Assembly: GCA_951406725.2 (NCBI GenBank)
Contig: OX597821.1
Coordinates: 113,150,001-113,214,000 of the forward strand
Source: Octopus vulgaris
Taxonomy: Eukaryota
Direction of reading: 5' to 3'
DNA length: 64,000 nucleotides
Below are positions 4,181 to 62,485 of the stretch, piece after piece; position 1 is the first letter of the stretch, and every line of letters starts with the position of its first letter. The notes under the pieces were generated by a model, which searched no databases, was not told where the DNA came from, and saw nothing but the letters and a program-made list of their open reading frames with translations. A program made the position numbers and the translations under genes.

Positions 4181-4740
4181 ATCATCATTATCAGCATCAT
4201 CGTTTAACGTCCATTTTCCATGCTGGCATGGGTTGGACGGTTTGACTGAAGACTGGCAAGCCATGAGGCAGCACCAGGCTCCAATCTGATCTGGCAAGGT
4301 TTCTACAGCTGGATGCCCTTCCTAATGCCAGCCACTCTGAGAGTGTAGTGGGTGTCACCGGCACGATGGGAGCCAGTTAGGTGGCCACGTTCAGATGGTG
4401 TTTTTTTTATGTAACCAGCACAAGAGCTAGTCAGGGCGGGCAGAGGTGGGGGGCTGACATGGACTGCGTTTGGATGATACTTTTTATGTGCAACCGGCAC
4501 GGGGAGCCAGTCAGGCGGCACTGGCAATGACCCACGCTTGAATGATGCTTATTGCATGCCACCAGCATGAGAGCCAATCAGGCGGCACCGGCACAGACGC
4601 TTGCATGAATGGTGCTTATTGTGTGCCGCCAGCACGAGAGCCAGTCAGACGGCACTGGCATCAGCCACAACCACAATTTCCATTTTTGATTGTGATTTGA
4701 TTTTTGATTTTACTAGACTCAATAGGTCTCCTCAAGCACA
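4181..4740 (-). mobile_element. Family C non-autonomous retroposon (RTE-like) with an internal array of about 65-bp units and a (GAT)n tail
   Basis: On -: ggcattaggaagggcatccagctgtagaaa...ccaacccatgccagcatggaaa..ggacgttaaacgatgatgat; more than 20 copies in the window. Confidence 0.8.
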
Positions 4741-6227
4741 GTGTAGCTTTAGATATCTGTAAGTCAGTAAGTTGAGCCTGTATACATACACCTTTTTATA
4801 TGTACATCATTCACAGTTTATATAATATCTCTAAAATATTTACTGGCAATTGATCAGCGAAAGGAACGCCAAGACAAAATGCTTTGTAGTAGTTCATCAT
4901 CAGCATCATCATCATCATAACCACCACCACCCTCATCATCATCATCATCATCCATTTTCTATATTGGCATGGGTTAGACAGTTTTACTGGAACTGGTAAA
5001 CTGGAGAGTTGTACCAGGTTCCAGTCTGGTATCGACTTGGTTTCCACAGCTGGATACCCTTTCTAATGCCACCCACTCCACCGTGTGTGGAGGGTGCCTT
5101 TTATATGTCACCATCACTCTCTGCGACTACGATTTCACTTGACCTGATGAGTTTTCCCAAGCACAGTAAATCACCAAAAGTCATGATCATTTGATATCGC
5201 TTCCGCTGGTTTTTGCCACAATTAGGAATTGGCACTTCTTTATGTTGCTGTCCTCGTCCATATGCAACTGTCCACATCCACAGTTAGTTACAATTATATA
5301 TGGCTACAAGTATGTGCCATGGAAAAAGTCCCATAAGGTTTGAAATGCACTGGGATGAGCTTTCCTCTCCCTCTGATATTTATTTTGTTTTTAACACAGA
5401 AAGTCGATTAGAGATGTTACCTCAGGAAAAATACTGCGGAAACTGGCCTATCAACTGTTTGTATACATTAAGTATTACTACATAGATGGCTATTTTAATC
5501 TTTTCACATTTCAGCTAATTGTACCTGGCTCAAATACTCTACCCTTCTTATGTTGAAACTGGCCAGATCCATCCTCTCACACCTAGCCTACAATGTCTTT
5601 CTGAATGTAAAGTTACATCATTGAAATTTCAGAGTTATGAGATAATGCATGATTAATTCAAAACAATGAGGGATAAATAAGGATTACATTTGGCAGGATA
5701 ATCTGAATCCTGAAGGATTAAAAGCAGAGTATTTCAACAAAAATATGATAATGAAACGATTAAAGCACTGAATTATTGATTAAGATTGTATTTACCTAAC
5801 ACAATGGATATCTGAGGCAGATATTTGTATTTTCATAGGTTAATTATTTTTATATAATGTAAATTTTAAATTTTGCACTGAGGCAAGTGAAATCAAAATC
5901 AATTCGATGACTGGTATCCGTGCTAGCGGGGTGCAAAGAGCACCATACAAGTGTGATCATTGACAGAGCGGCTAACCGGCTTCTGTGCCAGTGGCACATA
6001 AAAGGGCACCATTCAAGTGTCATCATTACCAACATCGCTTCACTGGAGATATATATATATCTCATGAAGTATATTTGCCACTTAAATGTGGCTAACCCCT
6101 AAGGCTGGATGCTATTGTACCTTGTAGCCCCAGGGGGACACCTCCTCCAGCTGGCTATTGACACATTTTCTGTGCCCTATCAGTATTTGCAAAGGGAAGC
6201 CATCCTTCCCGTCTTCAACCTATGATA

Positions 6228-6272
6228 CACACGGACTTGAGTTTCTGGGTATTGACCCATCATCAGCGTGTG
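6228..6272 (-). ncRNA. Minimal type I hammerhead ribozyme (Penelope-like element type), intact core
   Basis: cacacg-CTGATGA-tgggt(caat)accca-GAAA-c(tcaa)g-TC-cgtgtg: perfect 6-bp stem I, perfect 5-bp stem II, GUC cleavage triplet. Confidence 0.85.
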
Positions 6273-6572
6273 ACAATCACAGTTGTCGATGAAAAGTAGG
6301 GTTCCTTCACAAATATATATCCTTTTTCCAGTGACGCAGCCGCACATCTTCACATTAGGCAGACAAAAATTAGAACCAAATATTTATAAGGATTTTTATA
6401 GAATTTAATGTTTCTTTTTTTACTTGTTTTATATGTCTTTTAATGATGATTTTTTTTTTTTTGCTGCTGGGTTGTGGTTATGCTAGGGTATATTTTTCCC
6501 TTTTTCTTCTTCAAAAACCATCTTGTTAACCAATCAACATCAACTAATATTTTGATATTTCTATTTTTGCAG

Positions 6573-62485
<55,913 letters not shown>

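Follow-up and report, generated by a model that had tools for sequence, protein, structure and literature searches.

Hammerhead ribozyme motifs in a myosin VIIa-like gene of Octopus vulgaris: probable ends of Penelope-like elements, with a family of stereotyped mini-foldbacks

The locus and its hammerhead motifs

The window (the whole 64,000-nt stretch of Octopus vulgaris DNA analysed here) contains a myosin VIIa-like gene, whose exons match the myosin motor, FERM and SH3 families as well as the myosin VIIa chain 3pvl_A (E 1e-49). These plus-strand exons confirm a preliminary description, which had placed a cluster of hammerhead ribozymes within a myosin VIIa gene (Table 1). No exon motif was found 5' of the first placeable exon (at about 6570), and the locus at 6266, which lies upstream of it, is presumably intronic.

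Table 1. Coordinates of the host gene and of the hammerhead-bearing repeats in the window
Feature	Position	Strand	Remarks
Family E copy, single arm	6064..6332	-	Hammerhead 6228-6272, core 6266; antisense to host gene
Host gene, myosin VIIa-like	6570..59710	+	Profile and structure matches to exons
Family F copy, single arm beside (AT)n	12230..12468	-	Hammerhead 12353-12433, core 12429; antisense to host gene
Host motor exons	18261, 30445	+	Myosin motor family match
Family B head-to-head foldback	19189..19652	both	Arms 19189-19384 and 19457-19652; cores 19321- and 19520+
Old family H copy	25550..25706	+	Core 25586; 72-82% to best relatives
Old family I copy	30050..30290	+	Core 30139; 72-81% to relatives
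Family A head-to-head foldback	32462..32990	both	Cores 32524- (CCGAUGA, family type) and 32928+
Family G copy between (TA)n runs	35351..35552	+	Variant core CUGUNGA at 35430
Family D tail	46017..46084	-	Stretch between two 3' end sites of parent copies
Family D perfect foldback in (TA)n	46085..46215	both	64/64 nt paired; 3-nt centre 46149-46151
Host FERM/RA exons	52425, 54109, 55407	+	FERM family match
Host SH3 exon	59492	+	SH3 family match
Family C head-to-head foldback	60777..61046	both	Cores 60886- and 60935+

A plain search for core boxes retained nine of the 30 CUGANGA sites in the window (6266-, 12429-, 19321-, 19520+, 25586+, 30139+, 32928+, 46146- and 46154+). When stem-aware descriptors were run on the window and on shuffled sequence, the density of motifs was above that of the shuffles, as had been expected: a strict type I descriptor found 2 motifs, as compared with 0.08 on average in the shuffles (2 were reached in 1 of 60), a descriptor with a looser stem I found 4 against 0.33 (4 were reached in none of 60), and one with a relaxed core found 7 against 2.9 (1 of 15 shuffles). 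All nine loci singled out beforehand are present close to where they had been placed and are not products of chance, but most of the single copies are damaged. The covariance-model match that had been anticipated was absent at threshold. Rfam gave no hammerhead match at E<=1 on the whole window and none on 46140-46215, and the best hammerhead score obtained, for 6227-6271, was 11.6 bits against the RF00163 gathering score of 34.

Matches of the window to miRNA families of Rfam were set aside as microsatellite or hairpin look-alikes. A tRNA-like match on the minus strand at 27906-27987 (45.4 bits, over the Rfam gathering score) could represent either a gene resembling tRNA-Ser or a SINE head. 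Other repeats include a 22-bp tandem array of 14 copies (56823-57125), triplets of 66-67 bp at 4489-4660 and 46764-46958, and very long runs of (TA)n, the preferred target of Penelope elements, at 44383-45121 (740 nt) and 1407-1827 (420 nt).

The repeat families represented in the window were searched for in the 2.8-Gb assembly (227 contigs), and all nine loci proved to be copies of multicopy families (A to I). The majority sequence of every family has three stems, the palindromic helix III noted in the preliminary description, and a UH cleavage site, and fits a type I hammerhead, with the core boxes present in families A-F, H and I; the majority core is exceptional in families A and E, which have C at position 4, and in family G, which has U at position 6. 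Four of the 13 window arms (6266-, 32524-, 32928+ and 46154+) are free of clear damage to the core or to stem I, while the remaining ones have lost G12, the cut-site base, a base of the first box or most of stem I.

At 6266-, stem I is of 6 bp and stem II of 5 bp, and one change interrupts the palindrome that helix III forms in this family. At 12429-, a long stem II and a palindromic helix III are found together with a weak stem I (2 contiguous pairs). Both family B arms lack G12, and both family C arms carry a single substitution in the first core box; the majority sequences of the two families are intact, that of family C having a long stem II. The copy at 25586+ has G at position 17 and is predicted to be inactive, and stem I is broken at 30139+; the family H majority fits a hammerhead, and that of family I has a 6-bp stem I and a palindromic helix III. 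A chance origin of these two motifs is ruled out by their membership of old repeat families. The copy at 35430+ has lost G12, its variant core being that of family G. In the family D foldback, stem I measures 9 bp at 46154+ and 2 bp at 46146-. At 6266 and 32928, the core is canonical, unlike the CCGAUGA majority of the respective families, probably through CpG decay. The end of the family G insertion lies 75 nt upstream of a myosin acceptor site (at about 35628), and a short inverted piece of its own 5' end occurs twice upstream of this copy.

It should be noted that published systems are compared here through the accessible parts of the respective sources. The window families share with the metazoan PLE (Penelope-like element) hammerheads of PMC4209133 the type I architecture, a short stem I, a palindromic helix III, an extra base before stem II and the prevalence of single decayed copies. 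That source already describes pairs of minimal hammerheads lying on opposite strands at distances of 100-700 bp, whereas the family D pair is only 8 nt apart, and the CCGAUGA (A, E) and CUGUNGA (G) cores are not among the variants in the accessible part of that source.

Probable Penelope-like parents of the repeat families

Reverse transcriptase (RT) frames adjoin families D, A and G, for which the proposed link of the arms to PLE RT/GIY-YIG ORFs is thereby borne out. Family A is the 3' end of a PLE, with RT/endonuclease frames upstream in other copies; its arm lies beside a PLE ORF at L182 and L228 (downstream) and, inverted, at four loci. The corresponding loci for family G are L225 and L227, and 25 matches to this family were found unselected in the flanks of fetched loci. 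Family E has one weak ORF link (79%), and for families B, C, F, H and I no arm-to-ORF link was found in the fetched loci. The earlier picture of several independent PLE families holds good, as regards their minimal type I hammerheads, the (TA)n targets and the 5'-truncated copies in inverted orientation, and all nine repeats are likely to be Penelope-derived.

The parent element of family D was reached by using as protein query an RT fragment that lies beside a family A copy. RT frames bordered by family D arms are present in 13 of the 20 loci fetched, and the unit, of about 5.2 kb (5.26 kb in L219), comprises the hammerhead, a 69-nt tail, the ORF and a long microsatellite-rich UTR. In L210, the YRDD motif, the linker and the YIG motif are on a single 562-aa frame, with the RT followed by a C-terminal GIY-YIG endonuclease; in L219, the ORF is split by a frameshift. 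Pfam and PDB gave no RT match for this element, and its RT was assigned by motif alone: L219 has SDKT (DKT replacing DKG) and RWRS (R for K in RWK), and L219, L259 and L272 have the CxCX5C linker, with CxxC and CxH near the end. On reading the sequence, one cysteine only is found between the two GIY-YIG halves, which means that there is no CCHH inside the endonuclease. The RT shows 50% identity over 126 aa to the RT linked to family A. Direct pseudo-LTRs (pLTRs) with hammerhead, tail and inverted 5' copies are present, and (TA)n is found on both sides in 30 of 30 fetched loci. Two 3' end sites are used by the parent copies, a near one at about 62-66 nt and a far one at 131 nt after the core; among linear parent arms, 29 end at the far and 23 at the near site.

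Family D is the end of a young autonomous PLE that appears, from its motifs and the published description of the Hydra clade of C-terminal EN+ PLEs, which covers the Octopus bimaculoides family Hydra-1_Obim (PMC8557442), to be of Hydra-like type. The term non-autonomous, which had been applied to these families, thus fails for family D. Assignment of the parent to the Neptune clade was dropped on account of DKT and CxCX5C. The features held in common with the Hydra clade are the order RT then GIY-YIG, the motifs DKT, RW[K/R], CxCX5C and CxxC/CxH, and a canonical hammerhead, and those in common with PLEs generally are the (TA)n targets, the inverted 5'-truncated copy and the tail at one end (PMC8557442). 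In contrast, Hydra elements are generally shorter than 3 kb, as opposed to 5.2 kb with a long microsatellite-rich UTR; the family D tail has 69 nt instead of 30-40, and its copies are young and near-identical; its hammerhead differs, by eye, from that of Hydra-1_Obim; and the stereotyped mini-foldbacks described below are absent from the accessible description of the clade (PMC8557442). In a repeat annotation of O. vulgaris, recently active Penelope-like insertions are reported, and ribozymes or palindromes are not mentioned in its main text, as far as accessible (PMC13282606).

A further Hydra-like family, apparently intact and matching none of the window loci, was encountered at L209:2487-4904, an open frame of 806 aa with DKT, YRDD, CxCX5C and YIG motifs.

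Like the window loci, animal non-LTR retrozymes are non-coding, carry type I hammerheads and derive from PLEs (bioRxiv 10.64898/2026.07.22.740005, PMC7229834), but they consist of tandem direct units each with a ribozyme, while each locus of the window has either one arm or two inverted arms, and no array of direct units, each with a full hammerhead, was found at the nine loci. The tandem units seen in L159 and L163 were dismissed as local duplications without an ORF. A DNA-transposon MITE was also excluded, considering that the unit ends an RT-bearing element and that the inverted arms meet in mid-unit, with the tail at one end.

Head-to-head foldbacks and the viroid-like reading

The four foldback cassettes with a motif in each polarity, recognized in the preliminary description, are real, their arms being 94.5, 86.2, 77.6 and 100% identical. 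Among the query-selected loci, motifs on opposite strands no more than 1.5 kb apart are without exception arranged head to head, and never tail to tail. Paired loci amount to 16 of 52 in family A (two of the 16 pairs look like unrelated neighbours), 6/24 in B, 15/29 in C, 5/27 in E and 4/22 in F, and to 1/13 in H and 2/11 in I. Every listed centre differs in sequence. It had been left to decide whether the palindromes are multicopy or unique to each locus. Because their centres differ at every locus sampled, the foldbacks of the three older families (A, B and C) count as debris of ordinary Penelope inversions; the family D junction, in contrast, recurs at many loci. Penelope elements of Adineta vaga likewise form inverted repeats in head-to-head arrangement that have palindromes where they meet (PMC3846280).

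The centres of family A (L004, L006, L008, L014, L026) often carry short insertions copied from nearby sequence, which resemble the products of microhomology end joining.

It had been suggested that the cassettes are architecturally like a rod-shaped, ambisense viroid-like RNA, which would be released with a working ribozyme in each polarity. The presence of a ribozyme motif on each DNA strand and the recurrence of family D with an identical junction would agree with this. However, the mirror copies face outwards, and a transcript of either strand contains one sense ribozyme, whose single cut cannot release a unit. This ribozyme would moreover be buried: forcing its fold inside the foldback costs 74.9 (D+), 74.4 (D-) or 75.8 (A+) kcal/mol, as compared with 1.2 (D+) and 8.3 (A+) kcal/mol in the arm alone. 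Circle formation is also contradicted by the lack of tandem units at the nine loci; families B and C have damage in both arms, no two of the listed loci of A, B or C share a centre, and D belongs to an autonomous PLE. Because of this geometry and folding, the viroid-like reading fails, and we regard it as extremely improbable.

As for the host gene, the intact motifs on its sense strand are only 32928+ and 46154+, which are the downstream arms of foldbacks. Because the antisense partner arm is transcribed first, no cutting of the pre-mRNA is predicted: the two ribozymes would form part of long hairpins in the myosin pre-mRNA and be paired off. Dense intronic hammerheads, therefore, need not harm the gene that hosts them, the sense copies being dead or paired off. 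The cluster is real, but it is no new RNA replicon, and it is nothing unusual for a genome with many Penelope elements and much (TA)n.

Junctions of the family D foldbacks and a proposed mechanism

A 200-nt query from family D gave 761 first-look candidates; the 40 scored were all >=99% identical to the query, and 28 of them were mismatch-free. By fetching 30 of 40 matches per search, a set of at least 187 distinct foldbacks with centres shorter than 70 nt was obtained. All were chosen by similarity to a query foldback, and frequencies in the set are not genome frequencies.

The foldbacks of this set are strikingly uniform in the make-up of their arms. One far end (131 nt after the core) and one near end (60-70 nt, mostly 62) are combined in 185 of the 187, the other two having two far and two near ends, respectively. 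From the 29 far and 23 near ends of the linear arms, independent choice would give about 39% far-far combinations among tailed loci, and the queries used do not penalize far-far foldbacks. Both arms are of the same lineage type, as judged at three sites, in 183 of the 187; the other four differ by single private changes or a gap, and none of the 187 joins the two main lineages.

The junctions, on the other hand, are of many types, 19 and 20 in the two main lineages. Taken literally, the family D palindrome is multicopy: an identical junction does recur at many loci, in three sub-lineages and with the tail on either side, but it is accompanied by dozens of sibling junctions. The junction of the window has the tail on one side in 36 loci, all belonging to the window's lineage, and on the other side in 41 loci of three lineages; the matches that the orientation search gave in the second lineage were perfect palindromes. 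A junction that is a perfect 4-base palindrome is found at 29 loci and is the commonest in the sampled second lineage (29/68). Many junctions also include a stretch of 3-6 bases for which the newly made arm served as template.

Junctions in the two main lineages end where stem I begins, 29 nt below a TATA box and in most cases with an additional C. The base that follows the stem I complement at 220 arm ends of these lineages is C in 150 cases, T in 68 (nearly all accounted for by the 4-base-palindrome overlap), G in 2, and in none the templated A. This sharp stop is seen in the two main lineages; in the third one (20 loci, obtained with a longer-centre query), 19 junctions are further upstream and the templated A is present at 36 of 36 ends. 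Among parent arms having the TATA hexamer within 50 nt, it starts at -29 from stem I in 59 of 60, a spacing with a rough chance probability of 0.7%, to be read bearing in mind that the arms are copies of one family and not independent.

A possible explanation for the recurrence of one junction is that the 200-bp foldback is itself mobile: a read-through RNA of the foldback would be copied twice, the self-complementary cDNAs would anneal, and repair of the 3-nt central mismatch would yield both orientations. The mismatch-free copies of one form (28 of the 40 scored), the existence of both orientations with one of them confined to one lineage, and the presence of deletion derivatives across the hairpin speak in its favour. 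It would, however, require separate masters in at least three lineages, and it has to contend with the 19-20 sibling junctions per main lineage that share a common end point, with the lack of any shared one-arm variant in the paired region among copies of the window's lineage, and with the structure of the mini-foldbacks, which are without a TATA box and whose 64-bp hairpin covers the near start site. We consider this quite unlikely. Recurrence across sub-lineages and tail sides fits fresh formation better than a replicating palindrome.

We propose that the foldbacks consist of two reverse transcripts, primed at both cut ends of the (TA)n target and joined head to head. For family D, transcription would be driven by a TATA box lying in the 3' UTR of the element and yield a capped RNA whose 5' terminus is the initial nucleotide of stem I. 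Reverse transcription would begin twice, at the near site for one cDNA and at the far (tail) site for the other, with each cDNA extending a different target end; the template is probably one RNA, or RNAs of one source copy. Both cDNAs would be extended to the capped terminus and run off it, in many cases with the addition of one C, and their ends would be joined by pairing of 1-4 nt, sometimes after a snap-back of a few bases. The resulting mini-foldbacks, having no TATA box, would be dead ends. The RNA template would be uncleaved, because both arms hold the whole ribozyme, and at least one of the two orientations would need two cDNAs, because a tail on the copied arm cannot result from pure self-copying. 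That the fixed end arises from ribozyme cleavage was rejected, again on account of the whole ribozyme in both arms; few junctions coincide with the cut site (6 of 13 matches of one search), and deletions or stem I joins could also have produced them. The extra C could instead be a one-base extension made after the end of a cDNA has paired with the other strand of stem I.

Precedents are available for several of these steps. Cutting and extension of both target strands, two start sites and the use of uncleaved RNA have been observed in vitro for a lizard PLE (PMC11167929), and the untemplated 5' G in L1 and SVA insertions has been attributed to copying of the cap (PMC3287187). In that lizard element, Poseidon PAc of Anolis, the two internal starts define the tail, as for family D, the enzyme is a predicted dimer, and uncleaved RNA is the main template, in line with our proposal; however, no strand difference in the choice of start site is reported for it, as opposed to the near and far combination in 185 of 187 foldbacks here, and the joining of the cDNAs and the capped run-off end are left aside in the accessible account (PMC11167929). 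The pLTR of the A. vaga element has a putative TATA box and initiator, as in family D, but its structures were ascribed to self-priming on an antisense template (PMC3846280), while family D needs two cDNAs in one orientation. Drosophila Penelope has a TATA-less internal promoter, in contrast with the TATA-box promoter proposed here (PMC2377424).

The foldbacks might also be formed afresh with their fixed end set by structure or microhomology and not by a capped start, through stalling of the enzyme at stem I, the 4-base palindrome, or pairing between stem I strands. Stem I does provide 6-7 nt of complementarity, and the 4-base palindrome lies exactly there; some junctions run on with several bases of the post-cleavage strand. 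Furthermore, a full-length mRNA starting at stem I should sometimes give ORF-bearing arms that begin at this point, and of 11 parent arms running into the ORF none does. Difficult to reconcile with such an origin are the 220 arm ends without even one templated upstream base, the many junctions made up of exactly one C followed by the other arm, and the TATA hexamer at -29, and we judge it rather unlikely. For the fixed family D junction, we lean towards an origin at a capped start site. That the elements are of PLE origin and their foldbacks freshly formed is highly probable, and the reading as a whole, in which the nine loci are PLE hammerhead ends, mostly decayed, with foldbacks built anew at each insertion, is probable.

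A more speculative extension is that family D undergoes a step resembling retroviral strong-stop synthesis, in which the TATA box of the end repeat would drive a capped RNA from the first base of the hammerhead and a dimeric enzyme would copy this single RNA twice, from the near and the far site, with one cDNA placed on each end of the target; we put this forward tentatively, as a possibility that is somewhat doubtful. If it were true, a failed onward jump would leave the mini-foldbacks and a successful one would build the pseudo-LTR tandems, and the junctions would report, in vivo, on where the RNA starts, on its cap and on how the two enzyme subunits share the work.

On how inverted and tandem Penelope ends are formed there is one in vitro study, in which the second-strand and joining steps were left without validation (PMC11167929). 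The literature search, which covered subscription papers and supplements incompletely, found nothing on fixed-junction PLE mini-foldbacks or on cap copying by PLEs. The at least 187 short and nearly mutation-free foldbacks of family D probably represent an in vivo read-out of Penelope insertion, in which a near and a far end, arms of the same lineage and a sharp stop with an extra C are recorded, and the mini-foldback offers a small template for reconstitution.

Finally, a one-base loss after the predicted cut site, affecting only the arm with the tail, is seen in L299, L301, L303, L314, L321 and other loci. It is common to several different junctions, and could be either a sequencing error at the hairpin or the trace of a cut-and-rejoin event.
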